A DNA stretch of 63,965 bases, filler included, from Folioceros fuciformis (lineage: Eukaryota): assembly GCA_049999805.1 (NCBI GenBank). It is 7 parts of 7 records of this genome, joined end to end, with 100 filler letters (N's around TTAATTAATTAA, not from the genome) between each part and the next. Parts side by side here need not be neighbours in the genome. Positions count along the whole stretch, not along the records: positions 20,078 to 30,481 come from JBNGIO010000896.1; 6 more parts are not named here. One strand, given 5' to 3'. Positions 8,216-43,890 of this stretch are shown here, piece by piece. Every line of letters starts with the position of its first letter. The stretch's first letter is position 1. Position numbers and translations under genes: made by a program. The notes below the pieces were generated by a model. It was given only the letters and a program-made list of their open reading frames with translations. It was not told where the DNA came from and made no database searches.

Positions 8216-8315
8216 NNNNNNNNNNNNNNNNNNNNNNNNNNNNNNNNNNNNNNNNNNNNTTAATTAATTAANNNNNNNNNNNNNNNNNNNNNNNNNNNNN
8301 NNNNNNNNNNNNNNN
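8216..8315. other. Artificial contig linker (N44-TTAATTAATTAA-N44)
   Basis: The same 100-bp spacer with stops in all frames also occurs at 19978-20077, 30482-30581, 43791-43890, 51990-52089 and 59978-60077. Confidence 0.98.
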
Positions 8316-12200: not shown

Positions 12201-14130
12201 CAACATCACGTATGGCACTTGCATCATTCGCAAACATTGCTTGCATTTAGCTCTGGAATGGATGCATCCAAAGTGAACATCCGTCCATTCCTACTACCTT
12301 TAGCAATCAGTTTGCGCCCTCTGTCATATTCTTCAATAAAGCATCCATCTTTATTGAATCGAACCTGCAGATTTTGTTTAGCCATCTGTCCAACAGACAA
12401 CAGGTTCTTGGTAATGGTTGGAACATGCAACACATCATGCAGACTCTTCTGCTGACCATTCGGCATCCTAAGAGGAACAATTCCTCTGTGCTTTATGTCA
12501 TGTTGTGTGTCATCTCCTGTACAGACATGGCCATGGGGACTTGCATCCATCTTGTTAAACCACTCGCCATGCGGAGTCATGTGGTTTGATGCTCCTGAAT
12601 CAATGTATCATCTCTCATCATTCTGCCCATCCTGTTGAGAAACATGTTGCATGGCGAACAACCTCTCTTGGTCATTTCCAGCATTACTAGAGGAGGCATA
12701 GTTCCCATGCTGCCTTCCTTTTCCTCTCATGTCTGCTTGCTGCTTATAGCAGTCCTTAGCAATATGACCAACCTTACCATAGTAGTAACACTCCTTGTCT
12801 CTATTGGAATGGTCATGAGATTGAAAAGAACCATCTATTCCTCTTGTGGCTCTACCTGCGCCTCTAAAACTTCCAGATTCTCTCTGGTCTTGCGCATTCC
12901 TCCACGCCAATTGTCTTGCTGATTTTGCGTGTTCCGAGCATCACCCCGTCCTCGGAATGAACCACGACCTATGTGGCCTCTCCCACGCTGGTTAGAAAAC
13001 AAAACCGTGTCTCTCCCTTGAGATATACCTGAACCTGTGTTCAGACCAAGCTTAACTTCCTCATGCAGCAACAAAGCAACCAATTCATCCCAACTTGGGA
13101 ACTCAACTCTCACAGAGATTGATGTGTCCCAGGACTTGTACTCCTTGCCAAGTCCGTTCAAAGTAATTGCAACCATGTCATCTTCCGTCACACTTGCACC
13201 GATTGTAGCAAGCTGATCAGCTATGGTCTTCACCTCTGTTGTATACACGAGTATGGATCTGCTACCTCGTGACAAGTTGTTGAACTGCTTCAACTGGATT
13301 TTCCTAGCATGTGTGACATTTCCATAGTTCCTCATGAGTATGTCCCATGCATCCTTCGAAGACTCACATCTCGTGATCTGTATGACCATAGCATCTAAAA
13401 TGCTTAAGGAGAGCCAGTGTAACACTTTACATGCTCTCTCAGTCCAATGCTTGTGAGCAATCTTTTGCTCCTATAATGGAGTACGATCCATCTCTCGTGC
13501 ACTCTCATCACCTGTGTAGATGTCCCAATAGCCTCTACCTACCAAGAAGTTCTTCATCCTGAACTTCCACAAAGCAAAATTCTTGTTATCCAACTTCTCT
13601 CCCACGACCTGAGAGATATTGTCTGATCCTTGCACATTAGCCATGATTTAGGCTCCTTTACACTCCTCCTGAGTCTCTCTCCCTCTCGCGCCTCTCGCGC
13701 GCTCTTGCGCCTGTAGCGCCTGTTGCGGCTTCCTACGCCGCCTACGCTGCTGCACCTCCTGTGCCTCTCAATGTCTTGTGTTGCCAGCCACCTTCACGCT
13801 CACGGCAATAGCCTCAAACCCCCGCCATAGCTGCAATGGCTGCCGGCGCTCTCTCCCGCTCTGATACCATGTTGAAATAGCACCACAAGCCTAGAAGGAC
13901 TCCACAGTTCCTTACTTATGGTGCATAGGATGCTACATATATAGCCTTCATGCAGGGCAACCCTCGATAAGGTAAGCCTTAGTCTCTAGGGTGCAATATC
14001 CTAGCATATCCTGATATATCCTGATAACACTTAGGTGATAGATAACTATGAGTTCAATATGGGATAATCTACACTATCCTAAGTCTTGTATGCTCTTAAT
14101 AACAATTCAGTTAAAGCTTGATTTCTAACA
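9290..14130 (-). mobile_element. Full-length degenerate Ty1/Copia LTR retrotransposon (element A)
   Basis: Two 261-bp LTRs (9290-9550, 13870-14130; 15 mismatches by manual count). 5-bp TSD GGACT (9285-9289 / 14131-14135). tRNA-iMet PBS TGGTATCAGAGC at 13858-13869. Gag/zinc knuckle, protease, integrase (TPQQNGVAERKNR), RT (MDVKNAFL, YVDD) and RNase H (ADVFTK) between 13644 and 9564, with stops and frameshifts. Confidence 0.96.
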
Positions 14131-19977: not shown

Positions 19978-20077
19978 NNNNNNNNNNNNNNNNNNNNNNN
20001 NNNNNNNNNNNNNNNNNNNNNTTAATTAATTAANNNNNNNNNNNNNNNNNNNNNNNNNNNNNNNNNNNNNNNNNNNN

Positions 20078-20605
20078 CCTTCCCAATGACAATTAACATG
20101 AAGTCCAATGTGGTGAAGTAAGTGGCCTTCCCAATGACAATCAAGATGAAGTCCAATATGGTGAAGTAAGTGGCCTTCCCGATTGCATCAAAAATCTCAT
20201 CAAGTGTGGGCATCGAATATCTCTCCATGGGCGTCACTTCATTTAGAACTCTATAATCCCCACACATGCACCTGTCCTTCCACTCCCCATTCTCATCCTT
20301 CTTCATGGGTAGCAATGTGGCAGTAGCATACTGAGATGTGGACTTCCTTATTAGGCCGGCTGCTGCCAATTCCTTGCACCTTTGATCCACAATCTCTCAC
20401 TCTGTGGGACTTAGTTGAAGTCTCCGCCTAAGCACAAGTTCATCCATGCTAGTTATGATCTTGAACTTGATCCAATCATACCTGCCCAGTTCTTCCCAAT
20501 TGAAGCAAATGCATGTCGATTATCCTCCAGCATCACACGGATCTTCTGTTGGTCTTCTTCCTTCACCTCCTGACATACTTGTCAGACATGTCCTACCAAA
20601 ACGCC
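20078..20605 (-). mobile_element. Ty3/Gypsy pre-RT linker and reverse transcriptase N-terminal fragment
   Basis: EELGRY...LSPTE.EIVDQRCKELAAAGLIRKSTSQYA...KKDENGEWKDRCMCGDYR.LN...YSMPTLDEIFDAIGKATYFTILD. Confidence 0.9.
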
Positions 20606-21378
20606 ATAAAGTTGCAAGGGGGGGGAATGTTGTGCCCTCCTTGTAAGGGGGCAGACCTTTTTGACGAAAATGACACCCTTCACAAAAGGGTAAAAATTGG
20701 TGGTAAGTACTTTGTGCCAACCTTGCGCTATACCTTGTCCTAGCCACAAACCCGCTTTTTTAAACATACAAGGTGTAGGCCCCCGGTTTGCGTTTGCTAT
20801 CCATGCTATGTCTAGAACACCACAATGACAGGGGCACCGGCCTGCCGGCATCCCTCCACTCACGTGGACCATACGTCACATGCATGCTTGGCACACGGGC
20901 TGCATGAAAGTGTTCTATTTACGTTCTGAAAGGTGGGTAGTCAAACATTTGGAACAGAATTATCACAACAATTAACAATAAAGTCTTTCACCCTAATCCT
21001 ACCCTAGTCCACAAGAGGGTCTGGTGCAACCTCAAAGTCAAATACCACAACCACACTCTGCAACCACGCTTCGTTGGTGACAAAAAAGTTGTCCACTTTT
21101 TCCAAAGCTTTGTCCTCCACTCGTGAATCTTCAAGGTCATCGTGGTCCGATGTGGGTGCTTCCCATACCCTATCCATCGTTTGTTGTCTTGGGTCCAACA
21201 CATCGTTTGTTTTCCTACTCCTCCGCTTTGACGTCAAGGAAACCACTTGCGCCTGGGAGGAGTCCTTCTAGCTAATACAAACCTCCTTTGCCCAGAATTG
21301 GGATGGCCCTCGTTGATGAGGTTCGAACGTCAACTCTTCATCTGCATCTTGAAGCACCTCATCATACCCTTGGATTCA

Positions 21379-21545
21379 CTAGGGGATGTACGTTGCGCAT
21401 TGCTTATCTCCTTCAATGGCTAGGCAGTTCCGCCGAGACAGCAATGTAGTCCCGTTGCCTGAACAAGCATCAACGATCCACTCTCCCTCTCTACTGAAGC
21501 TACAAACCAACCTATCCATCAACCCTTGTAGGCAAGCGGGTGTGG
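21379..21545 (-). pseudogene. N4/N6 (amino) DNA methyltransferase C-terminal fragment (motif X-I-II region)
   Basis: LMDRLVCSFSREGEWIVDACSGNGTTL..RNCLAIEGD matches the N6_N4_Mtase pattern L..LI...S..G..VLDxFxGSGTT...gR..i.iE.d. It resembles the copy at 27716-27900. Confidence 0.7.
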
Positions 21546-22519
21546 TATCCCTACCAGGCACCTGCTTACATGTATCGTGGCCACATCAATCCCACGGTCG
21601 TTGTAGGCTTCCTTGGAATCGCTCCCCTATGAGCCTGGTCAGCTACGTCTATTGTTCCCCTACAATAGTCAACCCTCCCAACCACGTACCTGCCAAACTG
21701 GCAACACGTCCAGTCAGTAGGTAGGCACCATTCCTTCACTTGGAAGGGCCCCAGTACCTCCCCCTGCACTCATAACCTTTTCCTCACAAGACTCCCTACG
21801 ACACCTTTCTCAACCCCACAATCTAGCTGCTCGTCTCCCTACGCCCAACGAGCAACAAGTTTTCCTCTGAGCCTGCTCAGCTCCCTCCAACTGTGTTTAT
21901 CGTTCACCTATGACATTCAACCTTCCCTAGCGCATACCTTCAACACCTCCAGTCAGTAGGAAGGCACCATTCCTTCACTTAGAAAGGCCCTAGTACCTCT
22001 TCCTACTGATTTCTAACTACCTACACCGAATACCCCTTTTCCTCACAAGTCTCCTTACAACACCTTCCACAACGATCCAACTGCTCGTCTCCCCACGTTC
22101 AACGACCAACAAGTTTTTCCTTGGGCCGGTTGCTACGTGCTTGTGCATGTTAGCGAGAACTTCAAGGGAGTCTTTCTCTAGAGTCTACCCTCAAGCCAAC
22201 AGTCACACATGTATTGCCACCCACCTACAGCAGCACAACAACCATTCACAAGGGAAGCAACTTGCAGGGGTGCCCATGGAAGAATATGAGCCCTCCGCCA
22301 AGCACTTCGACCACTGCAGAAGGGAGGCAGATTCTGAAGGTTCAGCTACTGGGCCCCCCTCCATTATTGGGATTTGTCTACTTTGGATCCACGAACTTCC
22401 ACCGTACCTTCCTCTGTGTGGATCTCTTGGGATATCCCGTGACTACCACGTACAGGTTTGGTAGGGAAGGATCCACTTGTTCTTCAACTTGAGGTTCCTT
22501 CCCTACGTAGGGTGAGGAT

Positions 22520-22655
22520 GTCCCCTTCGTAGGTAGGGTCCTTGTTGCTCCCTTCGTAGGTGGGTTCCCTACCCCTCTTCTCATAGGTAGGTTCCTTACA
22601 CCTCCTCTTGTAGGTAGGTTCCTTACCCCTCCTCTCGTAGGTAGGTTCCCTACCG
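22520..22655 (-). repeat. 27-bp tandem repeat encoding (K/R)EPTYxxRG-like units, ~5 copies
   Basis: REPTYERRG KEPTYKRRC KEPTYEKRG REPTYEGSN KDPTYEG in ORF 22484-22666. Confidence 0.8.
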
Positions 22656-23175
22656 TTCCCACCCATTGTTGTAGGTAGACTGCCTACCCCATTGCCATAG
22701 GTAGGGTGTCTACCATATAAGTACCTTCCCTACCTATGTAGGTATCTTCTATTTTCCCCACATAGGTACTCTCTCTACGTATGTAGGTAGACATCCTACT
22801 ACGTAGGTATCTTCTTATTCTAACCAACCAAAATAGAACTAAAAAAATCCATAAAAACCTTCACCAGTTGCTCACTACCTACCATGGACACTTGCCCATA
22901 AACCTACCTTCCACATGTCTCCCTTCGAAATGTTCTAAACAAAAAGAAACCAAGTTAGACTTTCCTAGACTGATTACCAAACTTTTCCGTTCCACAACCC
23001 TAGTGGTCACTGAGATGGGCAAACCACCCTTTTGTAATCGAAGAGGTACACATATTTCTTCACCATCATATCATGCGCAATGATAGATTTGCCATTGTTG
23101 AAGATTCATTGTTGTTGCCTTGGCATCATTGACGTTCAAACTTTGTTAATTCCCTCCTTCACACCCCATCCAACA

Positions 23176-23937
23176 GTGGAAAGCTCACAAGGGTGGGCAA
23201 GGTCTTGCGAGGTTGACCGGGTGTATCAGTGGGATGCGAGGGTGGTCGCTCAATAGCAAGCACGGGTCTGGGCTCATAGTTTGCGTCCAATACACCTTGT
23301 AGCTGCAAGGTGGGATTCCGCTTCATGTTGCGAAGAGCAAGCTCCAAGACTGAACCAAGGATGAGGTTGGTCTAGTAGTTGCGTAGCCTATGCGCATAGC
23401 TGCCCACTTGGACAGCATCGATAAGAAAGGGAACACCAATATGGTGCTGCACAACGGCCATGTCCTCACAGACATAGTCCCTTTTGTCAAGCTGCACTAG
23501 GGTGTTCTCGAGAAGGTAGTCACCCTGTGGGTTCTCCTGCTGCACCCATGCCAAGATTTGGTGCAAGTCTAGGAACAGCCCAATGTGCTGGTCCTCCAAC
23601 CCGGCATTGCTTGTGAGAACCCTTGGCAATCCCAACCAGCAATCAGCATGTCGATGGGTCCCAAAGCCTGGATATGGCCTTGTTGGATGTACCTGACATC
23701 TAGAGGCAATGCTGCAAATGTGGCAGACAATGCTGACTCTGGCAATTGTGTGGGAAATCTGCTGCGGAGCTCCTGTAAACGATGAGTAGCCATCTATTGT
23801 GCTTCCCCACTACTGTCATAGTATATATAATGCAGAATGGGGAGGCCCGCTTTGAGCAAGGCCTCCATGCCAGTGCAAATACCTCTGAACAGTTCGACCA
23901 GAAAGAGGCCTGCACTTGGGATGGGCCAGGCAATCAC
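23176..23937 (-). pseudogene. C5-cytosine DNA methyltransferase domain inside a Gypsy pol polyprotein (degenerate)
   Basis: Motif I LVELFRGICTG, motif IV DMLIAGWDCQGFS, motif VI YLLENT and motif VIII GSYAHRLRNY*TNL occur in canonical order, followed by a PTLVSF segment. In frame with the upstream protease-linker ORF across one TAG. Confidence 0.88.
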
Positions 23938-24787
23938 CTAAGCACTAACAATATGCTCCTGTGTGGGATCCTTGAGCCCCCGCTGCAACATAGCTTGCAC
24001 CTGTTGAACATGCTCATGAGGATCCTGCAGCATGCTCTCAACTAGTGTACGGTGATTGGCAGCCTTGATAAGATCTGCCAACTTGCAGGTGATTGTGGTG
24101 TTGCTAAAATAGCTGTCATAGTGTTGCTCCTCCTGCTCAGACTCCTGGTGATCGTCATCATGCATATGGTTGCTGGCCAGCATAATTGCTCTGTTGTCCG
24201 GGCCTGCTACACATGCTTGCCGTTCCACAAGTGTCGCGGTGTCAGCCTCTGCCATGCCATACAGCCATAAGGGTAAGTGTGCTACCCTCCTTCCACCTTG
24301 CTTCCAATCTAGCCGGTAGTACGCTTGCTCTGTCCAATTGTCCACACTCAAGCCTGGTGGAAACAAAAATTCTTGACCCAACAGCACGTCAAAATTTGTG
24401 GCTGTTGTCACCAAGCATGGAAGGCTCAGTGTCATGGCATTTGGAGTGCCAGGCTTGAGTGTGATGTCCATAGGGTGGACAGTCTCTCCCGAGACTGGTT
24501 CGATGGCTCCTATGTCATCCTTATGTTCCAAGGAGAGCTCTTGAGCGCTGATCCACTGAGCTTGAGCCTTGCTGCTAAGGCTTTGCTAATTATCACTCGT
24601 TGGGCACTAGTGTCCAGCAATACCACTCTCGGAGCATACCCATTCACCGTGATGTGCCCAGCATCATTGTCAACAAGTGCATTGCCGACTCTAACTGCCA
24701 AGCGGTTAGTGGGCTGAATCCTTGGAGAGCTCATGGGTCAAGCAGGTTGTCCTCCAGCTGCTGCAGCATCAAGCATGTATGCTAGTA
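23938..24787 (-). mobile_element. Ty3/Gypsy gag C-terminus, aspartic protease and linker
   Basis: VVLLDTSAQRVII (DTG-like active site) and NFDVLLGQEFL (C-terminal retropepsin motif). One frameshift near 24520. Confidence 0.8.
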
Positions 24788-25924
24788 CACTCCAGTAGGT
24801 ATGCCTACAACCGTCCGTGGCAGTTAGGCCCCGCATTATGCATGATGGTAGAGTACTTCTACATGGACGGATTGTCCTGACTATCACTTCGGTGGCCAAG
24901 CCGGCGGGACAGAATCCAGCATGCCAAACACTTTGAAAATTTGACTCCATTGTAAATACTAATTTTTTCCAATCCACTCCGTCTCATCGAACTCCGGAAA
25001 ATATCTCCGGTGGACCATCATAGTAAGGCTCTAATAGGTATTTTTGGGGCTGACAGCAACCTACACGCCAAGTTTGAGCCAAGCACGCCAATGTTGATGA
25101 CGTTTAGGTAGCGCATGGGGTTAAAAAGTGGAAGAGAGTGCACCCCAAAGGAGAGAACAAGAGCTCTGGGAAAAGGAGGACTGCACAAGAGGCCCCACGA
25201 CGATAGGAAATCGATATGGGGAAGTCCAAACCAAAAGGAATATCAAAAGACATCGAAGCTGGGCACAAGACAACTTCGTCGACAAGGGAAGCAAGCTTTA
25301 GGCATGTTTCTAGAAGCCAGGGCTGGAACGAGACCAAGGGACAGGAAAATCTAGGTGGGGCAGCCTTGGAGATGGACCCAATGATGATCATCATGGAGGA
25401 GCTAAGTGTTCTACCAGGGATGGACTTGGAAAGCCCATTTACAAGGAAAGAGGAAAAAGCATTGTACGACATATATGTTGCCTTGCCTAAATAGGATCTC
25501 TTAGACAAGGAGTGGTGTGTCCACAAAGAGGGGCTGATTGCACCTTGCCCAACTTTGATCCCATCCCCGGTTCTTTGGGTGAATGGCTACCTTGATGCTT
25601 CCAAGACCTAGAAAATCGTTGTGAGCTACATCCTTTGGGTGTGGAAGTACAAGGTTCAAGCCCAAGTAAGAGTGAAAATGCTAATATGTCTTGTGAAGAA
25701 GAAATTCTTTCAACACAAGTCTAATGTACATTACCTCCTCACGTTGTCCACCAACAAGCTAATAACTCGCCGATGCAACAATGCGGACTTGTGAAACGGC
25801 CTAGGAAATGCGTTCACAATGGACAAGGTGAGCTTTTGGTTGAAGTTTTGCGTTGGATGCTTTCTAATCAAGTAGCACTTGGTGTCCCCAACGTCGCACC
25901 AACGACAATGCAAGGGTGCTGGTG

Positions 25925-26135
25925 TGCCCCTGGGCGCGCCAGGGAGGATGTAGAGCACTAGTGCACTCATGGGTGCGCCAGTGAGGATGTAGAGCTTCTG
26001 GTGTACTAGTGAGGATGTAGATCCACTACCTCGCCCTTGGGCCCGCTAGGGAGGAGTTAGAGCCACGGGCATGCCCTGGGTGCTCTAGAGAGGAAGGATA
26101 GCCTTTGGTGCGCCCTTGGGCATGCCATGCAGGAG
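25925..26135. repeat. Degenerate GC-rich ~38-bp tandem array
   Basis: Recurring ...gggYgcgccagNgaggatgtagagc... units. Confidence 0.6.
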
Positions 26136-26320
26136 GGATGGCCGTTTGTGCGACCGTGGTTGCCTTAGGCCATTTACTGCGGTCATGTTCAGGCTTGGGC
26201 TATTGGCTAAGAATGTAAGCCCAAACCATCCATCATCTTCTAACCTTTTTCCATGTTGTCGTGCAGACATTTGAGGCAGTACTTACCTTCATCAAGAAAG
26301 AGATCGTCATTGGATTGATC

Positions 26321-28626
26321 ATGACAAAGATGGCACACGAGGCCGAGGAAGCAAGATAGAACGTAGGAGATCACCTCAACATTCAGCGCAATCAGTTTGC
26401 GACAAGTTCTCGTGAACCGTCATTTGCAGCCGGCGAAGATGAAGTCAACCTTCGAGCATCCATGACATTGATACAAAAAAGGATATTTGTGAGGTGAAGT
26501 TGAAGAAGTATACAACGATGCTAATAGTGGGGACTAGATGAGGAGGAACCCAAAGAGAAAGATCCCAAAGACCAACCGAGCGAAGAAGACGAAGACGAAA
26601 ATGTGTTTCAAGAGATGGCTAGTGAAGGCGCATCAAAGCGGTCCTTGAACATCTCTGAAAAAGCCAGTGCAAAGACATTATTGCATAGCCTTAATGCCTT
26701 AGGGAGAAAATCATAGGCGATCCTACATGACACATTGGGTGAAGAAGAGAAGTTTGACTCGGCGTCTAAAAGCGATGATGATCTTGAACAAATTGTCGCA
26801 AACTCCCCGGTCATTCGTAAAGGGACAACGAATGTGAAGGCCAGCAAGAAGAAAAAACAAGGCAATATGAAAGAGGCTTCGACATGAAGAGTTAAAACGA
26901 AGGTTATCTTGACTGATAGCGATAGAGTTGGCAGGGCCTTGCAGCATAATGATCCTATCAATCTCGTGAGGGAGTCTGTGCATCGCAAATGATGTATTCC
27001 GCATACAGACATGGTCGCCATAAATATTTTGTGCTCAACAGATTATCTAACCAAAGATGCCCAAATAAGGCGAGTTGACAAGTCATGGGGAAAGCATGTG
27101 CTACGCGAGATAAATAAGGGGCTAGTACAGAAAGGCATTATGCCCTTGATGTGCATGATCAACCCTAAGGAGTGCCCGAGGAAACTAATAATACAGGCCA
27201 TATCCTTGTCCCATCGTTCTGTGTAGTTTCCTCTTGGCATATCCAATATGAGCAAATATTGGATATGGCCTGTATTATGATTGGCCCAATTTGCTCATAT
27301 TGGATATGCTAAGAGGAAACTACGTAGAACCATGGGACAAGGAATTTATAGCCGATGACCTGGAGGAGGTAATGGAAGGATTTTTCAAAGTCATCGAGTG
27401 CCAAACATTCAAAGTTGTATGCATGCACGGACAAGATCAGATGTAGGATGTGACAAATGTCTTGCGGAAGTGGTGTGTGAAGGGAGGTGTACAAACTATG
27501 GTACGGAAAAAAGACCTCGTCGCAAATGAGGGGCTATACAAAAACTATGAGTACATGACAATAGGATTTGGGGTTCATCCATTGAATGAAGATATTCAAA
27601 AGAGCAATGCATTGAGCAATAGTGCGGCAAAGGAGATTGGAGCAATGCTTGGGATTATCAAGCACAACGTTGTCATAAAAAACTGATCAATGTGTCGAAT
27701 GATGGCTGAGTTGTAAATCCATATTAGAAGCCACTCGAGTTGATGGTTCTTTTACGTGGGCTCTTGAGCGATGAAGGAGAATGAGTAATAGATGGATGCT
27801 ATGGGAGCAAAAGTGGTGTGCTTTTGCATTAATGGAAGGGTGGAATTGTATTGCCATTGACCAAGACCAATGACATACCATCTTCATCGAGCAAAGAATC
27901 ACGAGCCATGAAGTGTTTCGATCGTATGAGGAAGAATTGACAACGAAGCCTCGTACACGAGGGCATTCACTTTCTTTTGCTCGAGAGCTTTCTGTGGAAG
28001 GTCATTGAAACCAAGGGCGCACGTAATGCAAATGGTTGAAGGGAAGACTGCACCAATGGACCTCCAAGAACTCAATCAAACGTAAGAACATGCAAAAAAG
28101 AAGACGAAAGGAAGGGGAAGGGAATTTGATCATGCACCTGTAGAGGATTTGGGAAAGGGAGCGCCGCGACACTCCGATGACGAGACCTGGGACCTTGAGC
28201 AACTAGAAACTTTCATGTCCAACCCATCATCCATGTTTACGAAAGAAGACCACCAAGACCGTAGTTTGTTATCGGGCCACAAGCTAATGAGAGACACATA
28301 ATTGTCCCCATGACAGAGCACCAAGACTCTCCACTGCATGAAGGGTAGTTAGTGGCCGATGATAGCAATGTAGATGTGAAAGAGCTTTGGCGTGCACAAG
28401 TGTGCGCCATGAATGGCTATGATAATTGTAATACATGCTTATGTTTGATGGTAATGCCATCAGCTTGGCATGTCAAAAATCTTTGCTTCAAAGAATGTCT
28501 ACTTTGAAACCCATAGTGTACTATGTGTCTAGCGTGCCCAACCTAGAAATGACAAAACTTAGCGATCAAGGAGGGTGGGAAGAGGGGAAACCGTGTGCAC
28601 AAAACAGACCCGAATTATTTCAGTAG
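26321..28626 (+). pseudogene. Beta-class N4/N6 DNA methyltransferase gene with acidic N-terminus and putative ParB-like domain (degenerate)
   Basis: Manual translation: QIRRVDKSWGKHVLREI...PLMCMINP (~27011-27185); LLILDMLRGNYVEPWD (27291-27338, motif IV position); VVNPY*KPLELM (27710-27745, motif X); SDEGE*VIDGCYGSKSG (motif I); ALMEGWNCIAIDQD...FIEQRI (to 27900). Stops and frameshifts present. Confidence 0.8.
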
Positions 28627-28648
28627 GCCTAGTTGGCCTACTATGAAA

Positions 28649-29650
28649 TCACTCGTGTGCATTCATGTCCTTGGTTGTTACTAGCAAGTAGAACAACCAC
28701 TTGATACGCTCCTTGCTGGGAAAATGCCACATAACCTTATGAGGCACATTTTCCCTCACAAGCCTTGGCTTCCCATACTTAGCGCATGTTGTGTTCACCT
28801 TGTATGGGCCTCTATATAATATGCAGTAATTTTGGCAAGCAAATATTTATGAACCTTCATTCCCAAACTACCAGAACCTTTTTTGCGGCTTCGATGCTTG
28901 TGGGCAAACAATTGGGAGTGGGCAAAAATTCATTGAAAGCACCCCGCAGCATGTCAGTAACAACCACATTGGACATGCCATGCCTTGTTCAAAGGCCGAG
29001 TATCAGCAACATCCATGTCAACATATTTTCTTTTAAGTGCACTCATTGTCTACAACCCATAATAGAATTCTTCGCCTTAGCACGACACCAAGCATCTACC
29101 ACCTGGCCACACATGTGGTTTACATTGTCTATAAATTCTTGTGCTATGTTCCAATGGGGAAGGACATCCCTTGAATCACTAGCTTCCGTGTTCACCTCGG
29201 ATGTGCCATCGATATCACTAACATTCGAGTTTGACATATGGTTTGGATTTTCGTTTGACAAGCTGTCCATTTCATTTTCAGCACGTATGATGGCTTCCGT
29301 ACCCTCGTTTTCCAACGACAGGCTATCGTCATTTGGGTGGGTGTCATTCACCACCATATTCACATCTCTGCCAGCCTGTTACAATTAAAACCCACCGTCA
29401 TACTATGCTTTTGTTTTCATGCAAACATGTACTACGGACAAACCCATCTAATGAACCTAAAGCCATCTAAGCAAAGCATCCTCCATGTTTTGGTGAATGT
29501 AGTAACGGCAAGAGAGTGTGGTAGGATTAGCGTGGGATGGATGCAACTTCGCACATTTGCGGTATGGACACCGCATGTACAACCCCGTTCTTTGCGCTCA
29601 TGGCATGGTGGCGGGCCCATGTTCAGCAAATCCCCCACAAACCGCGTCGT
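28649..29650 (-). mobile_element. CACTA (En/Spm) TnpD-like transposase N-terminal relic
   Basis: MRCPYRKC...LDGF..W (transposase-associated domain), then RHGMSN...LPTPNCLPTSIEAAKKVL and ACQNYCILYRGPY....C....R....VPHKVMWHFP..RIKWLF, the conserved TnpD N-terminal blocks. Confidence 0.82.
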
Positions 29651-30581
29651 TCTTCAGCAAGCATACTTAGGCTTGGCCTTGCTACCTGAAATTGTGCACA
29701 TGATCAGAAGGCGAGGAATAAGCCTTAACAAATCTAGACAAGTGCGGAAGCAATGACCACATCCGAAGTCACACCCAAATTCACCCGCACTGTAGATCAT
29801 GCACAACCGGCACACCTCGTTCAGCTTGCTCAATCATGGTCGAGTTTGCGGGAAAGTGAATTCCCCATAGACAAAAACTTGTGATCTAGTCTACCAAAGC
29901 AAATCCAATGATTTGGTCTACAAGCTCTCTAGTTTCTGAAGCTTCCTGCTCACCGCCGTCGTTGTAGAGCGCGTGAACTTTGTGCTGAAGGTTGGTGGAC
30001 GTGGGCGCAATTAGCCAAATCCCCTTTTCATTGCAACTCCTCCACATGACAACTCTCATACAACAGCTAGCAACCACCACACTCTCAGCCTCAACTCCCA
30101 ACTCACTATAGAAGGTCGTGTGTATCGGAACTCCCCTCGAAATAATCAAACAACAGGGACTTGGTAGTTTTTTTTGTTTTGATCAATAGAGTGATTGAAT
30201 ACGCTATGGGCAACCTCTTTTATACCCAAAAGTCTCCTTGGCCCATGGCAGTTTCACTCTTCAGCGTGGTTTTGGCTACTAATAATAGGTCCTCGGGTCT
30301 TGACAATGGGAGAGGGCCGGACTCAAAGTCCCTTGGACATTGGCATTAGTGTTCCTTAAATATTGTTTTTTGCAATAACTCATCCTTGGCTCATGGCCTA
30401 CGAGGACGGGCTGGGCCAGGAGTTCCTTGGCTCTTGGTGGTTTGGAATAACCAGGAGCCTACATAAGAAGGAGGGGGGTATNNNNNNNNNNNNNNNNNNN
30501 NNNNNNNNNNNNNNNNNNNNNNNNNTTAATTAATTAANNNNNNNNNNNNNNNNNNNNNNNNNNNNNNNNNNNNNNNNNNNN

Positions 30582-31208
30582 CTCCAATTGTGCCCGCTGT
30601 GTCCCTAAGGTGATTGCTGTACGATGTGAGTGCTGTCTCTGCCGCTGGAGCTGGCGGATGTTTTTTGTGTTGAGTGGTTGGTCTGTGCTGTGATGGTGCA
30701 GGACAAGGCTGTGAAGCGGTTTCTTGTGCGTAACATAGTAGAGCAAGCGGCAGTTCGTGATGTGCAGGAAGCTTGTGTCTATGACCGTGGGTTCCCTACC
30801 CCCTACCCTCCGACTCCAGTCGTCTGGCATAGGTCAGGTTGCAAGTCCTCGGGATTAGGTCGTCGTTCGTATTCTCTTGATTGTTTCTCTCGTCTGTGCA
30901 GAGTATACTCTCCCCAAGCTCTATGCTAAGATGCAGTACTGCATCTCTTGTGCCATCCACTCCCATGTGGTGCGGGTGAGGTCCCGGGCTGCTCGTCGTA
31001 TTCGTGAGCCTCCTCAAAGATACAGGCGCAAGGTACAAAAGAAGGAGAAGTATTTGATGTTTCCCAGCCGCGAGGCAAGGGAGTTTCCTGGTTTCTAAAT
31101 CGTGCTGGTCTTGTTCGTGTGTGGCTTTGGCAGGAGGATGGCCCGCCTCGTCCAGCTCCAGCAGGCGGTCAAGGGGCACCCCGTCCTACAGCTGCTGGAC
31201 CGAAGTAG
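30582..31208 (+). CDS. RPS26: 40S ribosomal protein S26 (eS26), 5'-partial; exons 30582-30609, 30702-30786, 30902-31032, 31134-31208
   Basis: [29 protein letters not shown]...[28 protein letters not shown] with in-phase GT-AG introns. Confidence 0.96.
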
Positions 31209-31288: not shown

Positions 31289-33811
31289 TCAATCAATTCT
31301 TTTTTGTGTTTGGAGCTCAGCGCTCTGTCTGGTTGAAATTCTAATTCTATCATCTTGGCCACTATCTGGAGCGAGAATGACATCGCTTAAATCCATATTA
31401 TGCACTTGCGACGTGAGCATGTCTACCATAGCGTAGACTTGGGAACCCTGGCTGTGGCTTTCGTCTCCTACCAGGAACATATGCATCTCTTCCGCCAACT
31501 CAACCCAACTCTGACCTGGTTGCTTCCATGCGCCTGCACGAGCCCTTCGCTGCTCGATGTCGTTCACATCGTCCCACCTTTGGGCGTAAGCATATATACT
31601 CGACATGAGCCCATATGCAGCGCAGTGTTTTGCGTCCAAGCTCACAGCTTCGTCAAAGGCGCGTCTTGCAAGCTCCACGTTGCCATGCTTCCTGCACGCC
31701 CCGAGCAATGACAGCCATATTCTTCGATCAGGCCGCATGGGCATTTTGCGAATCATCTCTTTTGCTCCGCACAAGAGTCCTGCACGTCCCAGTAGGTCAA
31801 CTATGCTCACATAATGCTCAGGTGTTGCCGGGATGCCAAACTCTTTGCCCATGCGTTCAAACAACTCCACCCCTTTATCCACCATGCCGGCATGACTGCA
31901 AGCAGACAGCAGGGACACAAATGTCACTGAATCCGGCTGATTGCCAGCTAGCTGCATTTCTTCCAGGCATTGTAGGGCCATCTCACAATCGCCTCCCCGG
32001 GCATACCCGGCAATCAGTGCTGTCCATGACACCACATTGTGTTCGGGTATGGAATCAAACAAGCGCCTTGCATCCACCATGCTGCCACATTTGCCGTAAG
32101 CATGAACCAGAGTGTTTGCCAATCGCAGGCTGGCTTGCAGACCAGTTTCAGCAACAGCCTGATGGATCCCAAAGCACATCTTCAGAGCTCCGGTGCTGCA
32201 GCAAACCTTTAGGATGCTCAGAAAGGTCGCCTCGTCAGGCCTTACCCCAGAATGTTGCATCTGGGCATATAATTGCACAGCCTTTTCATATTGGTCTTGC
32301 TCGGCATATCCTGCAAGCATGGCATTCCATGATACTAGATTTCGATGGGACAGAGAGTCGAACACATGTCGTGCATCCGCTATGCTTCCACAGGTAGCAT
32401 ACATGTGCACAAGAGTGTTACCAACGAACATATCTGAGCAACAACCAGTAGTCAAAGCTTCAGCGTGGATCCACTTGCCTGTCTGTAGGGCGTCTACTTT
32501 CAGTAGATGGTAATCTATGAGGGTCTCCTTCTCCTCACCAGCCACAAGGCCACATGCTTTTAGCGAGCTCACAAACGTCCACTCATCAGGGATGACTTTG
32601 CACTGCTGCATCTGAGAGAAAATGTGCAAAGCCTCTTCGCCCAGATTCTGCATCACGTACCCCGCAATCATTGCATTCCAGGCTGCCACGTTGCATTGGG
32701 GAAGTGTGTCAAACACATACTGTGCATCCATCATGCTTCCACACTTGGCATACATGTGAATGAGAGAAGTACCAACAAAAGCATCCAGCTGAAACCCCAT
32801 CCTGATTATGTCCCGGTGCAAAAGCTTGCCCATTCCCAGTGAGCCTGCCTTCATGTCTCGCCCATCCACAATCGTCCTCTGCTCCCCCGAAGCCAGACTT
32901 GCACAAGCCTTCAGCAAGCTCACAAAACATCTAGCCTGAGGCCTCACACCTTCTTTCTGCATTTGAGAATAGAGCTGCAGGGCTACGTCACCCTGCTCGT
33001 GCTGAGCATATCCTGCCATCATCGCAGTCCACGCTACAACGCTACGTGGGGACAAAGCATCAAACACAGCCCGAGCATTCATGATGCTTCCACATTTTGA
33101 ATACATATCTACCAACGTGTTGCTAACAAACAAGTCTGATGCATAACCCATGTCAGCTGCTTGCGCATGTATGAACTTGCCCCTTTGTAGAATGTCCACT
33201 TTGACAAAATGCCCGTCCACCAACATGCCTGTCTCCCTGGCAGCAAGGCTTGCACAAGCTTTAATTAAGCTTACAAACGTTCGGTCATTAGGCCTTATTC
33301 CGTCTTCCTGCATTTGCCCATAGAGCTCCAGAGCTTTACCAGCTTGCTCTTGTTGAACATATCCAGCAATGATGGCTGTCCATGAAACCACATCTCTCCG
33401 AGGCATGTTGTCGAACACATCTTGTGCAGCCACACTGCTCCCGCACTTGAAATACATATTTACCAACGTGTTTCCGACATACAGGTCATCTTCATACCCA
33501 TGCTTGACAATGTGCGAGTAGAGACGGTTCGCTTGCTCAAGGTCTCCTGTGCTTCCACAATCCTTGATTAGACGGACAATTGTGTACTTATTCCTGGACT
33601 CCACCCCCTGGAGCTTATGGTTCCATTCTCGAGTCTGATTCAAATGTACATTGTCCACTAGGCAAGCTGAAATTCCCACTCTTGGGAATCTGCACACTGC
33701 AGAATTTCCACTCTGGAGACTCCGCAGTGGAGAGAACACGGTTCCACAAATTCCTGCCATTTCCAATACCCACGCTTGCGGGGCTGCAAGCCAGGACTTT
33801 CCACTTGCCAT
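31289..33811 (-). CDS. PLS-class PPR protein with E1/E2/E+ C-terminus, intronless, probable transit peptide
   Basis: 840-aa ORF with five P-L-S triplets, E domains and WKQPGQSWVE PG box. No HxE/CxxC DYW core. Confidence 0.95.
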   Translation of the reverse strand: MASGKSWLAAPQAWVLEMAGICGTVFSPLRSLQSGNSAVCRFPRVGISACLVDNVHLNQTREWNHKLQGVESRNKYTIVRLIKDCGSTGDLEQANRLYSHIVKHGYEDDLYVGNTLVNMYFKCGSSVAAQDVFDNMPRRDVVSWTAIIAGYVQQEQAGKALELYGQMQEDGIRPNDRTFVSLIKACASLAARETGMLVDGHFVKVDILQRGKFIHAQAADMGYASDLFVSNTLVDMYSKCGSIMNARAVFDALSPRSVVAWTAMMAGYAQHEQGDVALQLYSQMQKEGVRPQARCFVSLLKACASLASGEQRTIVDGRDMKAGSLGMGKLLHRDIIRMGFQLDAFVGTSLIHMYAKCGSMMDAQYVFDTLPQCNVAAWNAMIAGYVMQNLGEEALHIFSQMQQCKVIPDEWTFVSSLKACGLVAGEEKETLIDYHLLKVDALQTGKWIHAEALTTGCCSDMFVGNTLVHMYATCGSIADARHVFDSLSHRNLVSWNAMLAGYAEQDQYEKAVQLYAQMQHSGVRPDEATFLSILKVCCSTGALKMCFGIHQAVAETGLQASLRLANTLVHAYGKCGSMVDARRLFDSIPEHNVVSWTALIAGYARGGDCEMALQCLEEMQLAGNQPDSVTFVSLLSACSHAGMVDKGVELFERMGKEFGIPATPEHYVSIVDLLGRAGLLCGAKEMIRKMPMRPDRRIWLSLLGACRKHGNVELARRAFDEAVSLDAKHCAAYGLMSSIYAYAQRWDDVNDIEQRRARAGAWKQPGQSWVELAEEMHMFLVGDESHSQGSQVYAMVDMLTSQVHNMDLSDVILAPDSGQDDRIRISTRQSAELQTQKRID

Positions 33812-34524
33812 TCCATCATCTCATCTTGTTGGTTCGGTCCTCAATGTCACAAAAGTCTCCGACGGTCCTACTCTTCGTGCTGAAGCTGAAGCGCTTGTCA
33901 AAAGCCAGAGAGAGCATATCAATACTCCGATGACCGAACTAGGAACCAGGAATTCTCCACTCACTGTTGAACTGTGCAACCTTCACCATAGCAGCTGCAT
34001 CCAAGGATAAACTACCGTGGAAATACGCGGGGAGCGTGCCAGGCACCAGATTGAGCTCAGTTCCATCCTCGATTTTTGCAACAGGATCTGTCAACTGCGA
34101 ACACACATAAGCATGCTGAGAAGCGGACGTATTATCCTCCACGCCTTTAACCCGGGCAGTTGAATTCAGTCTTGCAACGTTTGGTGTTTGCTGCACTGAA
34201 GAAAAAAAGGGCACGGTAAACCGCCGTATGGTTTCCGTTTCTGTTACCGGAGTGTGCACCGGAATTGAGGTTCCAGCTGAGCAGATCGTACAATGCTGGC
34301 GTGTGGTGTCACGCAGACTGGCGGCAGCCAGGTCCTAGTCGATCGGACACATAATATACTCCAAGTCAATCACATAGAGCACTGGTCTTCTCATCTTTCG
34401 GGCTCTATGGCCAAGGCATGGCTTAAGAGGCAAACGTGCCTTCGCTTGATTTCCGAGCGACAGGTCGCCATCAGATACACCAACCAGCTTCCTAGACAAC
34501 ACTCTCGATGTCCGCAATTGTTTG

Positions 34525-38663: not shown

Positions 38664-41600
38664 TCAAGCGCCGCCCCTGTTTTGCAGTTGTACAAGTGCG
38701 TAGTAAGCACCTGCTTCGCCCTTCGCAAGAAGCTCCTTGTGGGTGCCTTTCTCCAGAATGGAACCATCTGAGATCACGGCTATCGTGTCTGCATTTTGGA
38801 TGGTTGCCAGCCTATGGGCCACCACTACTGTCGTCCTGCCGGCCATCATCTTGTCCAAGGCATCCTGCACCACCCGCTCAGACTCTGCATCCAAGGCACT
38901 TGTTGCCTCATCCAGAAGCAGAATCGATGGATTCTTGAGAATTGCTCTAGCGATGGCTATTCTTTGCTTTTGCCCTCCTGATAGCTGGAGTCCTCTCTCT
39001 CCGCAGAAAGTTTCGTAGCCATCCGGCAGACCACTGGAACAGCCAGGCACATGCTCGTTAGTGTCAACTATCAGCCACGTCCTCGTGAGGAGCCAGAATG
39101 TTTTCCGTGAAGGAGACATTACCTGATGAAGGTGTGTGCATTTGCTGCCTTAGCGGCCTCGATGATTTCCGCCTCAGTGCAGTTGTCCGTTCCGTATGAT
39201 ATGTTTTCTTTGATAGTGGTGGCAAACAGGGCGGGTTCTTGGCTTACGAGACCGATAAACTTTCTCAGAGCCATAAGGTTGTAGCTCTTGATGTCTTTGT
39301 TGTCGATCAACACTCTTCCATTCAGAGGGTCATAAAACCTCTCGATAAGCCCAATGATTGTTGACTTGCCCGAACCACTGTGTCCAACCATGGCCACTGT
39401 CTTGCCTTGCCTGATCTTCAGGTTGAACTTTTTGAAGACCATCACATACGGTCTGCTGGGGTAGGCGAAATCCACATCAATGAGCTCGATTACCCCGGCA
39501 ACCTTGGTTGGCTTCTCACCCTTCTCGTTGTCAGCGTCGATTTCAGTCTCCCTGTCCAAAATTTCGAACACAGAAGCCACTGCCTGACTTCCCCTGGCCA
39601 GATCTGGAGAGAGATTGCCCGCTTCTGCCAAAATCCGTCCAGAGGACACCAACACGAAGAAAGTCCGGAAGAAGTCTTGAAACTGCACTTGTCCTTTGCT
39701 CAGCAGCTGCCCACCGTACCAGTAGGCTAATGCCCAGGAAGAATACATGATGAAAACCGCCGCTCCAAGCCCAATTCCAGCAATCTGAGACCGCTTGTTG
39801 ATTTGCTTCTTGGGGATCTCGAGCTTCTTGTCGAAGAGAGCTAGGATTTTGTCTTGAGAAGAGTAGGCTGCCACAGTTCTGAGTTGACCAACTGCCTCCG
39901 CAGCTACCTGTCCATGAAAGGACGGCACTAGGCACTATTAGGAAAGAAGGAGGTGGCATAGGAACTTTACTGCGACAACATATCATGAGCATGGTCATAA
40001 CCAAAACCATTCATGAGGTATGTGAGATTCTCACCTGACTAGCATCTGCCTGCGCTTGAGCCGCTTCAGCAGCAAACCGTCCCAGAAAAATTTTCTTGGC
40101 AGAGTAGCAAAAGATCATCAAGGGCTGGATGGCAATAAGCACTGCAGCAAGCCGCCAGGACACGACCAGACCGATGATGAAACTGACAAGAATCGAACTG
40201 GCAGTCTGGACCAGGAGCGATATCCTATCTCCCACCAAAGAGCGGACCTGTGCACGACAAGGCACAGGAAACAGTAAGCTGTTGATCAAAGTGCCACGGT
40301 TAGGACAGGACAGGCAAAAACAAACGAGTGCAACAGTGCACAGCAAAGTCTGTAGGCATTACCTGGTTTGCATCCGTATTCAGTCTGGCACAGACAGCAC
40401 CACTAGAATTCTTGTCGAGATCGAACCATCCGACTTCGAATTGGAGCAATTTGGTCAACATCTTCGCGCGGAGCTTCTTCGTGAGCTGCTCGCCCATGGC
40501 AGCAAAATAGTAATGCTGCATGATGTTGACCAAGAGGGAGAGGAAGGTGAGACCAACGAAGACGCCGAAGTATGCCCGGACTTCTCTCCTGAGAGTATTG
40601 GAGTGCTGTTCATGAAGTTCGGGAGACTCTCCTTTTCTTGGCTTGTAGAAAGCTAGGATCATTCCTCCGATGATGTAGGCGAATATTGGCTGCACGAACC
40701 CGAAGCCCACGGCACCGATGACTCCTAGAGCACCCTCTTTCCACTCCGACCCATTGAGGGCAAGCAGCCGCCAAAAGGAGGGCTTGAGCACCTCTTCTTC
40801 CTCATCAGGCATCATGGCATCGAAGTCGATGATCAAGGTCTCGTAATCCCCATCCAGGTCATCACCGATTTTCTGCGACATACTCCTCTTGAACGACCTG
40901 GACAGACTCAACCTGCGGGAGGAATTCCTTGATGAATTCCGAGACGAGCCCCGGCTGAGATTCCTGGGGTCGAACTTGCCATCTCGCAGTGCAAAGGAGT
41001 TAGACCTGGAAGAATTGACCGAGCTGCTCCGAGAGGTGTGTGCCGAATTTTGCTCAGCCTCTTGTTCCCTCTCACGTGCGGCCTGTAGCTTTACCAGATT
41101 GGCATACGCCCCGTTCTCTCCTCTCAGAAGGAGCTCCGTGTGACGACCCATCTCCACCACCTTGCCCGCCTGGACGACGGCAATGGTGTCGGCATTCTGG
41201 ATGGTGGAGAGTCGATGTGCCACAGTCACGGTAGTTCTTCCCATGGAAGCCTTCTCCAGAGCCTCTTGCACAATGCGCTCTGACTCGGCATCCAACGCGC
41301 TCGTAGCCTCGTCAAGAAGCAGAATTGGGGGATTCTTGAGCATGGCACGGGCTATGGCAATCCGCTGCTTCTGACCTCCAGACAATTGAGCACCTCTCTC
41401 GCCAACCTGAGACGCATGATGGGCATCCCTTTGTGAGAATTGGCAGAAGCAACAACCACTCGACAGTCACGTGGGTGCATCAAATAGCCTATGACCATAA
41501 TTACCTGCGTATCGTAGCCATCAGGAGAGCTGGAGATGAAGTCGTGGGCATTAGCAGACTTTGCAGCAGCGATAATCTCATCCATAGTGGCATTCTCCTT

Positions 41601-43790
41601 GCCGTAGAGAATGTTTTCCTTAATGGAGGTTGCAAACAGAGCAGGTTCCTGGCTGACCAAGCCAATTTGCCTCCTCAGCCACTTTATCTGAAGGGACTTG
41701 ATGTTGTGGCCATCCACCAGAATGGTTCCTGCCTGTGGGTCATAAAACCTCTCGAGCAGGGCTATGACGGTTGATTTTCCAGACCCACTAGCACCAACGA
41801 GCGCCACGTTCTTGCCTGCCGACGTCACAGGACGTTAGCCCCTGTACAAACCAGTGGGGTACTTCCCGAAACTGGAGGATAAAAGAAAATTGTGGTACCA
41901 GCAGGGATGTCCAGGCTGAAATTCTGGAAGATAGGAGCTTCCGGTCGGGCAGGGTAGGTGAAATCCACGTTCCTCAGCTCCAGATGGCCTTTGATGTGGT
42001 CCAACACTTCGCCCTTGACATCATCTGGGTCGATGTCGGGCACCCGATCTATCATTGAGAACATACGATGACCGGCAACAGCTCCCTCAGAGAAGGCTCT
42101 TAGACTGGGCGCCAACTGACCGAGTGCCCTGCCAAGAGAAGACGGGACGTCCGAAACTTGCGTCAGCACGGAAACCATGGACACATATGTGCACACATGG
42201 TTGAGCTACAACAACCCAGCAACCAACTTGTGAAGACAAGAATGCCATAATGTCTGTCCGCTTACATGCCACCAATGAGGATAGCGAATCCGGTCATGAG
42301 AACTTGACCACCATTCCGCGAGCCATTGATGATGAGCACGCTACCGACCCAGGCGAGCACGCCCCAGATGATGAAGCCGAAGCCAGTGGCCCCCACGGCA
42401 AAGCCCTTGAAAAAACCTTGCTTCTTCCCCATCCTCACGGTCTCGTCCAGAGACTCAATGTAATTTCTCACCACCTCTTTCTCTCCCGCATACGAGTAGA
42501 CGGTCCTGATGGAAGAGATGGCCTGATCCGCAATCATGCTGGCCTTGTCATACGCCTTGTGACGCTTGATGGCCAGATCTGTGAGGGCGTACTTGTAGAA
42601 GAGCCCCGGGAGCAGCAGTAGAGGGGTCAAGAAAACGGCGATGACCGTAAGGATCCATGACAGGTAGAAACCCACCACATATCCTCCGACGAACTGCGTG
42701 AAGGTGGCGATGAAATTTCCAACCTGCGACACACGACAGAAAAAAAAACATAGATCACTCACCACGCACATGCTGTTCCCTGTTTACCCATCCCTGAATG
42801 CCCAATCAAAGACTGCAATTTGAAAGAAACAATGGGTCCTATCCTCTGTGGCCTGACCTTCTCACTGATTGCATCTTGCAGAACTTGACTATCCCCCGAG
42901 ATAGTGGCAACAAGTGCAGCAGTCCCCGACTCCGCTGTGTCGAAGTAGCCGATGTCCTGCCTCAAGATGGCTCTCAGGTACTTGGCCCTGATGCGAGAAG
43001 ATTGCCTCTCTCCGGTCTTCATCCAGCAACTCAATTCTGCGGAATTTTTGCATCCCACACCAGAATGGTGAGCGTCATTCCACACAGCCACAACTCTCAA
43101 ATTCAGCCCTCAATTCACACTCTCTTCATCAAAAGCAGGTGGCAGGGGCCGGGGGAACTGACCGAGGTAGGAGCCGAACCATCCACCAAGCCCGATGAAG
43201 ACCATGTACAAGACAAACTGCAAAGCAAACAGAAGGGCAACAAAACCATGAGCTCCGCAGGGCCGGCTAAAACAACCCGCAAGTCTGAGGGAAAGAAGAA
43301 GAGTGAACAGCGAAGGTGGAAAGCTTGCGCACTTTAGAAATGACGCTAGAGATCCTAGACGCGTCCGTGGCGGAGAGTGAGCCAAATTTGTTCACAAGCT
43401 GGCTCTGAATGAGGATGATGAAGGGAGACACAAGGCCATTGGCCATGGCTCCCAAGGTGCCCAAGATCATGAGCACGACATCGTAGGCGTCGGCGTACTT
43501 GAAGAGCTTGTAGAAAGGCACAGATTTGAAGGCTTGGGGGACGATGGGCTCATCCTCGGGGAAGTCTCCATCCCGATCCAGGTGCAAGCCTTCGGGAATG
43601 GGGGAGCCGGCCGGGCCGAAGTCGTCCCGGCGGGGCAGAATGTCATCCCCCTTGTAAGACTGCTGCCGCAGGGACCTGGCCCGGTATGATCTTTGGCGGA
43701 AAGACTCCCCCAGGCGTGGGAGCTCCCCGGAGCGATCCCTGTACGAGGACTGTCGGAAGGAGGCCGAGTAGAAGTAGGGATCCTTATAGC
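38664..43790 (-). CDS. ABC transporter B family (MDR/P-glycoprotein), full-size, multi-exon, 5'-partial
   Basis: Two TMD-NBD halves, Walker [10 protein letters not shown] and GHSGSGKST, signature [29 protein letters not shown] twice. Stop at 38664. Confidence 0.96.
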
Positions 43791-43890
43791 NNNNNNNNNN
43801 NNNNNNNNNNNNNNNNNNNNNNNNNNNNNNNNNNTTAATTAATTAANNNNNNNNNNNNNNNNNNNNNNNNNNNNNNNNNNNNNNNNNNNN

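Follow-up and report, generated by a model that had tools for sequence, protein, structure and literature searches.

Decayed copies of a PF01555-type methyltransferase module in Folioceros fuciformis as candidate relics of Ty3/Gypsy-like retrotransposons

DNA methyltransferases are encoded by some retrotransposons, with examples described in a charophyte alga, dinoflagellates, chlorophytes, Euglena and other organisms. Here we describe two decayed copies of a bacterial-type amino-methyltransferase module in nuclear DNA of a land plant, Folioceros fuciformis (GenBank assembly GCA_049999805.1). Both lie in one block (20078-30481, from JBNGIO010000896.1) of the window, the whole stretch of 63,965 bases that was analysed and along which all positions are counted. 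We consider it somewhat more probable than the alternatives taken together, at a rough probability of 0.55, that both copies are what is left of Ty3/Gypsy-like retrotransposons, now dead, whose Pol carried methyltransferase domains. The first-pass annotation had instead read the first copy as cargo of a CACTA transposon. A plant DNA transposon with its own writer of N4-methylcytosine (4mC) or N6-methyladenine (6mA) would be striking if true, and the evidence here does not support it.

Among the closest described systems is KnitGypsy-Dnmt3 of the streptophyte alga Klebsormidium nitens, in which a DNMT3 lies inside the Gypsy Pol (de Mendoza et al. 2018, PMC5890265). Like it, the locus of our second copy has a DNMT3-type C5 domain in a putative Ty3/Gypsy Pol of a streptophyte, with motifs I and IV following the protease in frame; unlike it, the present copy is dead, its host is, to judge from PLS-E-type PPR genes, a land plant, and a PF01555-type module, of which the consulted portion of PMC5890265 makes no mention, comes after the DNMT3-like part. 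The DAM-LTRs and EpiLTRs are long terminal repeat (LTR) elements with a DIRS-derived adenine methyltransferase, to which the EpiLTR subset adds a DNMT and a chromodomain; according to the consulted portion of the preprint, Streptophyta lack DAM-LTRs (Fernandez-Moreno et al. 2026, bioRxiv 10.64898/2026.05.21.726589). As far as that portion describes them, EpiLTRs resemble the present locus in joining, within Pol, a prokaryotic-type amino (adenine) methyltransferase domain to a C5 DNMT. They differ in that their amino-methyltransferase is of the 'DAM' type with an Asn-Pro-Pro pocket, whereas ours is of the PF01555 type (HPxQKP ... DxFxGSG); their DNMT is sister to DNMT4, whereas ours is DNMT3-like; and they have chromodomains, of which we saw none, while only the cofactor-binding half of the module is detectable here. 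In the portions consulted, neither source describes a retroelement with a PF01555-type domain.

Outside retroelements, the module can be compared with the PF01555 enzymes of phages and bacteria, such as those of Vibrio phage 1.007.O, Enterobacter phage Phc and Mycobacterium phage Tote. Both copies align at 30-45% identity with the C-terminal ~90 positions of these enzymes, from the strand that precedes HPTQKP, through the helix of motif X and the loop of motif I, to the R-x-x-I-G-I-E strand. Unlike these enzymes, the copies have no detectable DPPY motif or N-terminal half, they lie in a eukaryotic nuclear repeat, and they carry stops and frameshifts. Eukaryotic enzymes of related type include bdelloid N4CMT, which has a PF01555 domain (PMC8885841), and MpDN4MT1a/b, homologs of beta-class N4 cytosine methyltransferases, where the catalytic motif of MpDN4MT1 is of the TSPPY type (bioRxiv 10.1101/2021.02.12.428880). 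In the portions of these sources consulted, both are intact host genes, whereas the present copies have neither a catalytic half nor an intact frame and stand in a transposable element (TE) context.

Copy 1 (Table 1), at 27665-27903 on the plus strand, encodes, in decayed form, the C-terminal, S-adenosylmethionine-binding region of an enzyme of the PF01555 (N6_N4_Mtase) type. A dead fragment and not a gene, it is disrupted by at least four in-frame stops (27707-27709, 27725-27727, 27782-27784 and 27830-27832) and two frameshifts within 27.68-27.9 kb. The first part holds the strand ahead of an HPxQKP-like motif (NPY*KP), then the helix of motif X (LELMVLLRGLL) and the loop of motif I (VIDGCYGSKSG). 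The peptide VVNPY*KPLELM...SDEGE*VIDGCYGSKSG reads in a single frame over 27710-27832, and ALMEGWNCIAIDQDQ* occupies 27823-27873 in a different one; both had been quoted in the first-pass annotation and are present in the sequence, as is LLILDM(L/P)RGNYVEPWD at 27289-27343. The second part of copy 1 is the second piece of the match to the methyltransferase of Mycobacterium phage Tote (44% over 25 residues, joint E 3.6e-5), and it is colinear with copy 2. The tail that follows at 27910-27996 aligns by tblastx with 21360-21274 at 41% identity across 29 residues, and jointly with the other pieces it reaches E 4.7e-8.

The assignment of copy 1 begins with a 50-residue read-through of 27683-27832, which at E<=10 drew tblastn matches in 246 phage records, the best at E 1e-2. 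The matched rows fell under an annotated DNA methylase or methyltransferase in all of the best 15 and in 51 of 60 sampled across the ranking; the other nine were hypothetical or unannotated, and none had another named function. Three of the matched phage proteins are PF01555 members at E 1e-30 to 5e-34, and a back-search of phage PF01555 enzymes against the window returned to 27656-27903 in two frames at E 3.6e-5. The match is therefore more than chance. Against a hidden Markov model (HMM) of 15 phage PF01555 enzymes the same piece scored 31.2 bits, reached by none of 1000 shuffles, and hhalign gave 97.1%; these enzymes were picked from matches to copy 1 itself, so that its scores are inflated, while those of copy 2 are not. 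Across the whole window, translated in six frames, this profile matches just two places, copy 1 and copy 2. At the invariant H of HPTQKP, copy 1 has N and copy 2 has C. A Pfam search of the copy-1 pieces and raw frames returned nothing even at E<=10, and a PDB phmmer search with the 50-residue piece returned no match.

Copy 2 lies on the minus strand at 21-23 kb. The phage enzymes match it at 21525-21346 (back-search E 2e-4), and its open reading frame (ORF) is the only one in the window matched by the phage HMM (E 9.6e-7). That ORF scores 25.0 bits against the HMM, a value reached by 0 of 1000 shuffles, and 96.6% by hhalign against the 15 phage enzymes. Copy 2 was not used in choosing the profile sequences and therefore gives independent support for the family assignment. 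Its best Pfam family is PF01555 (E 0.016); the N6_N4_Mtase profile, silent on copy 1, gives 15.6 bits on copy 2, below its gathering cut-off of 26.7 bits. A PDB phmmer search with the copy-2 ORF gave non-significant rows only, with a WD40 coatomer on top and methylases at E 0.34-2.

Copy 2 is broken by stops and also by a solo LTR, which holds ~240-bp tandem repeats (21626-22117). Reading across the LTR adds KKYVYLFDYKRVVCPSQ*P before LGLMDRLV, extends the match to profile positions 152-233 and raises the score from 25.0 to 35.9 bits, again reached by 0 of 1000 shuffles. Likewise, the colinear tblastx match between the two copies improves from E 4.5e-4 to 4.7e-8 when the LTR is read across, with the match spanning the junction. 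Summed contig depth is 900-5300 over the solo-LTR region (21466-23200) and ~10-30 beside the LTR. In each of two sequencing runs (X1 and X2), one contig lacks the LTR and passes straight from 21522 to 22998; the insertion may be polymorphic, or an uninterrupted paralog may exist.

The unit common to the two copies comprises ~115 residues, namely the last ~90 PF01555 positions and a short tail. The proteins are ~34% identical over the core (~35-40% is the figure for the pair overall), and they can be aligned as DNA over ~300 bp only; on this comparison the copies appear to be anciently diverged. In both, only the X-I-(II) part of the domain is detectable, that is, the pre-motif strand, the HPxQKP-like loop, the helix of motif X, and the loop of motif I with the strand and helix that follow it. 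Two other identities for the module were considered and rejected. Against motifs IX-X of a DNMT3, the alignment to PF01555 extends much further, and it alone is backed by a tool. Against a DIRS-type 'Dam' domain, the module has the HPxQKP and DxxxGSG-type motifs of PF01555 and not the NPP pocket given for that family in the consulted portion of 10.64898/2026.05.21.726589.

The neighbours of copy 2 are retrotransposon domains. Along the minus strand the order is protease, DNMT3-type domain, module, ~230 codons and reverse transcriptase, with few frame changes. The second half of the protease shares its frame with DNMT3 motifs I-IV, with two stops over the 339 codons of 24585-23569. A PDB phmmer search with 23569-23937 found DNMT3A/3B/3C in 29 of 30 matches at E<=10 (best E 1e-3), with motifs I and IV aligned, and Pfam PF00145 reached E 0.055. 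Beyond motif IV, we take ENT and AHRLRNY to resemble DNMT3 motifs VI and VIII, together with part of the target recognition domain (TRD), on comparison by eye with DNMT3A and with no tool match. The N spacer at 19978-20077 truncates the reverse transcriptase, so that RNase H/integrase and the 3' LTR are missing, and no LTR pair was found around the copy-2 element in the window. Scores for the protease, the DNMT3-type domain and the reverse transcriptase are all weak because the element is decayed. The protease-DNMT3 segment belongs to a repeat family, at a summed depth of 140-300 (23201-24935) against ~12 for unique sequence; this family is possibly a land-plant relative of the Klebsormidium Gypsy-DNMT3 elements.

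The second remnant thus appears to lie inside a decayed retrotransposon, beside a DNMT3-like domain, and retrotransposon debris is therefore a likelier source of the module than CACTA cargo. We infer that protease, DNMT3, module and reverse transcriptase were once one polyprotein, and that copy 1 came from a related retroelement. Under this proposal, a Ty3/Gypsy-like Pol would have carried protease, DNMT3-type C5-methyltransferase, module, ~230 codons and reverse transcriptase in turn, and the ancestral protein would have methylated the element's own DNA copy or its insertion site. A later solo-LTR insertion split the copy-2 module. Copy 1, on the same proposal, would be what remains of a truncated retroelement of this kind, abutting by chance a truncated fragment of a CACTA-like transposase. 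Nothing in either copy is functional today.

Several observations weigh against this retroelement origin. The copies share only ~350 bp, with no tblastx alignment upstream or downstream of it. Protease, DNMT3 and reverse transcriptase are not detectable on the copy-1 strand by Pfam or PDB searches, the sole hint being a 10-residue match to the copy-2 protease: RVGRALQHND, within 26888-27229, against RVGNALVDND just before the protease active site (7 of 10 residues, pairwise E 0.026). For the region of DNMT3 motifs VI/VIII/IX, phmmer and Pfam returned nothing. The catalytic half is absent from the detectable sequence of both copies, and the ancestor may never have been an active amino-methyltransferase. 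Summed depth falls from the values of the protease-DNMT3 segment to only 10-33 over module and reverse transcriptase (20078-21465), although this measure, from public contigs placed on the block, is a rough proxy and not a copy number. The two segments may therefore belong to different families, making the locus a recombinant element or a juxtaposition and not one Pol. Searches of the protein collections yielded no homolog for any piece of the window: neither the 504-residue read-through of 26321-27832, compared with proteins of 277-882 residues, nor the DNMT-like ORF, compared with longer proteins, gave a true match. No intact copy of the module was found in the window (its copies were counted within these 63,965 bases only) and no outside homolog in the collections searched. 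Of two metagenome scans the first found nothing and the second two loci only, prokaryotic or phage-like, with no eukaryotic relative. One is a phage/bacterial-like methyltransferase beside an ATPase-like gene (ORFs by eye), and the other a short match on a bacterial-looking contig.

The depth break and the shortness of the common stretch are also what would be expected from chance juxtaposition, which we regard as rather unlikely. Here the module would derive from some other low-copy repeat (such as a non-autonomous element, a fragment captured from a gene, or an old pseudogene of the host that once encoded a bacterial-type methyltransferase), so that the fragment at 21-23 kb would merely lie between the pieces of one or two Gypsy elements and that at 27.7 kb beside a CACTA piece. 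The lack of a retroelement domain at copy 1 fits such an account, as does the nature of the block, a dense patchwork of TE debris. However, the copy-2 module stands on the same strand and in the expected order between protease-DNMT3 and reverse transcriptase, with few frame changes, and motifs kept at ~35-40% identity imply long purifying selection as a protein in a replicating lineage.

If the domains were indeed parts of one Pol, a more specific arrangement may be put forward tentatively, namely a land-plant Ty3/Gypsy-like lineage with a composite methyltransferase, in which a DNMT3-type C5 core was joined in frame to the X-I-(II) half of a beta-class enzyme, between protease and reverse transcriptase. 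The junction segment before the HPxQKP-like loop is common to two copies that are themselves only ~35-40% identical, which on this composite reading would make the arrangement an old one that selection once maintained. Two permuted methyltransferase topologies could also have been combined in such a protein, as a hybrid formed in nature.

The nearest detectable relatives of the module are phage enzymes, and this could point to an insertion from a giant virus or another DNA-virus relative, or to a horizontally acquired host gene like DN4MT1 or N4CMT that was duplicated and then decayed. Bacterial-type N4 methyltransferase genes do occur in a liverwort and in rotifers, as described in the consulted portions of bioRxiv 10.1101/2021.02.12.428880 and PMC8885841. 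Among PDB chains, the copy-2 ORF touches those named DNA cytosine-N4 methyltransferase, but only at E 1.7-2, and no significant similarity to 4mC writers was found. Against these origins, a Pfam six-frame scan of 19-31 kb found no other viral hallmark gene, both copies hold only half a domain, and the neighbours of the module are retroelement domains. We consider them improbable, and retain the retroelement origin as the preferred explanation.

The first-pass annotation had assigned copy 1 to a whole beta-class enzyme with the motif order IV-TRD-X-I, preceded by a ParB-like domain. Of this, a decayed C-terminal part of a bacterial-type amino-methyltransferase, linked to mobile DNA, holds, and the whole enzyme is not supported. 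The 145-codon frame claimed for motif IV and the TRD gave no Pfam match, no phage tblastn match at E<=10 and no PDB match. Searched with HMMER against 1.84 billion representatives, its sole match was a spurious tandem-repeat protein with junk Pfam matches, and longer proteins in the protein collections gave no true match. The frame reached 0.09% by hhalign and -2.4 bits against the phage HMM, a score equalled or beaten by 844 of 1000 shuffles. More generally, profile positions 1-150, the N-terminal catalytic half, have no match in the six frames of the window, for neither copy. The ParB fusion fared no better: the stretch concerned gave no HMM match, no PDB match and no Pfam match at E<=10, either by itself or within three frames of 26321-28122.

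The peptide LLILDM(L/P)RGNY..WD occurs on both strands because it lies within a 55-nt inverted duplication, with the arm at 27289-27343 read on the plus strand and the P variant on the minus strand. The minus-strand arm gave a marginal 2.4 bits against a sub-profile of eight phage enzymes, reached or exceeded in 1 of 1000 shuffles (30 of 1000 with the 15-sequence profile), and its match to LILCDLPYGTTRNKWD in a single phage enzyme has E 4.6. At the aromatic position of motif IV, (D/S)PP(Y/F/W), both arms have R. A reading of LLILDML... as the ILGMDWL motif of a protease was also tried, and pairwise comparison yielded nothing.

Copy 1 was further said to lie tail-to-tail with a relic of the CACTA transposase TnpD. 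The adjacency is real, as the junction lies within an exact contig (28205-29859); the TnpD identity was confirmed by no tool. The peptide of 28649-28988 (-) resembles what we take to be the conserved region upstream of Transposase_21 in plant CACTA transposases; no Transposase_21-type domain was found by Pfam on the minus-strand frames of 19-31 kb or in three ORFs of the relic. The copy-1 unit ends near 28.5-28.75 kb, and a paralogous contig no longer matches past 28460. Summed depth is 11.9, equivalent to one contig, over the TnpD-like body (28753-29793), and 25-67, or 2-5 fold, over the methyltransferase unit (26324-28752). The junction looks like two truncated fragments meeting. Within 20078-30481 there are five CACTA/TAGTG pairs at >=12/20, against a mean of 2.6 (maximum 7) in 50 shuffles; none of the five has equal 3-bp flanks, and no CACTA terminal inverted repeats convincingly bracket both genes.

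We therefore weighed a CACTA (En/Spm) family carrying a ParB-fused beta-class N4/N6 methyltransferase, convergent with TnpD, against these data. The bridged junction, the likeness of the minus-strand peptide to plant CACTA transposases, unconfirmed by any tool, and the marginal motif IV-like signal on the inverted arm speak for it. Terminal inverted repeats and 3-bp duplications are lacking, however; the TnpD-like piece breaks off at the junction, and the single-copy depth of its body is not shared by the methyltransferase unit; there is no ParB signal and no N-terminal methyltransferase half; and the one other copy visible in the window is linked to retroelement domains and not to CACTA, an outcome that the first-pass annotation had itself named as refuting its model. 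We judge such cargo very improbable, and the preferred reading remains that of two dead retroelement relics.

The window is divided by six identical spacers (44 N, TTAATTAATTAA and 44 N), and contiguity is valid within blocks only. A ~39-bp unit with a consensus around GGTGCGCCAGGGAGGATGTAGAGC occurs in six tandem copies at 25879-26142, just upstream of the copy-1 unit. On 20078-30481, the contigs of run X3 differ almost only by C>T (433) and G>A (368), the pattern expected from a bisulfite- or enzyme-converted library. From run X4, presumed to be RNA, just three contigs match this block, all of them on repeats, with no bearing on expression. Around the TE patch lie host genes, among them several long intronless PPR genes, two with E-type C-termini, a feature indicative of land plants. 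Elsewhere in the window, an apparently full-length Copia-type element occupies 9290-14126 (-), with 257-bp LTRs that are 95% identical (9290-9546 and 13870-14126) and long integrase, reverse transcriptase and RNase H frames between them.

Table 1. Positions of the features discussed (an asterisk within a peptide marks a stop).
Feature	Position	Strand	Evidence or remark
Copy 1, module part 1	27665-27817	+	15-phage PF01555 HMM, positions 158-210, 22.6 bits
Copy 1, module part 2, one frame over	27823-27903	+	ALMEGWNCIAIDQDQ*HTIFIEQRI; strand and helix after motif I
Shared tail, ~30 codons, EVFRSYEEELTTKPRTRGHSLSFARELSV	27904-27996	+	Outside the methyltransferase profile; also in copy 2
Copy 2, module start, …KKYVYLFDYKRVVCPSQ*P…	22997-23105	-	Upstream of solo LTR
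Copy 2, remainder of module (LMDRLVCSFSREGEWIVDACSGNGTT..RRNCLAIEGD) and shared tail	21268-21526	-	Pfam, HMM, hhalign
Solo LTR, high-copy family, 1470 bp, TG…CA ends	21527-22996	.	5-bp target-site duplication ACCCT at 21522-21526 and 22997-23001
Retrotransposon aspartic protease	23938-24737	-	gag-asp_proteas E 5.4e-6; Asp_protease_2 E 2.5e-5, 25.3 bits against a 24.3-bit cut-off
DNMT3-type C5 cytosine methyltransferase relic	23372-23937	-	Motif I LFRGICTG, motif IV IDMLIAGWDCQGFS
Ty3/Gypsy-type reverse transcriptase, N-terminal part	20078-20581	-	PDB: Ty3 reverse transcriptase 4ol8 E 5.5e-4; Ty3 Gag-Pol 7q5b E 2.2e-3
CACTA TnpD-like N-terminal relic, cut off near 28650	28649-29378	-	By eye; no Pfam match
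145-codon frame, claimed motif IV and TRD	27252-27686	+	No methyltransferase profile match
Local inverted duplication	27203-27343	both	Arms 27203-27257 and 27289-27343, 55 nt, 93% complementary, 31 nt apart
Claimed ParB/Srx-like stretch	26888-27229	+	No Pfam, PDB or HMM signal
Spacers	8216-8315, 19978-20077, 30482-30581, 43791-43890, 51990-52089, 59978-60077		
PPR genes	3-1451, 5992-7320, 31289-33820		
ABCB-type transporter, intron-bearing	38664-43842		
Ribosomal protein S26e gene	30630-31000		Pfam E 3e-12

Although dead and half visible, the two copies have value as a pointer to a family worth seeking in the full genome and in relatives. Relics of DNMT3-bearing Gypsy elements with a PF01555-type module in a land plant would, if the reading is true, widen the host range of such elements and add a third methyltransferase family to those picked up by retroelements. 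A composite element, if true, would parallel the EpiLTRs among streptophytes while drawing on a different amino-methyltransferase family.

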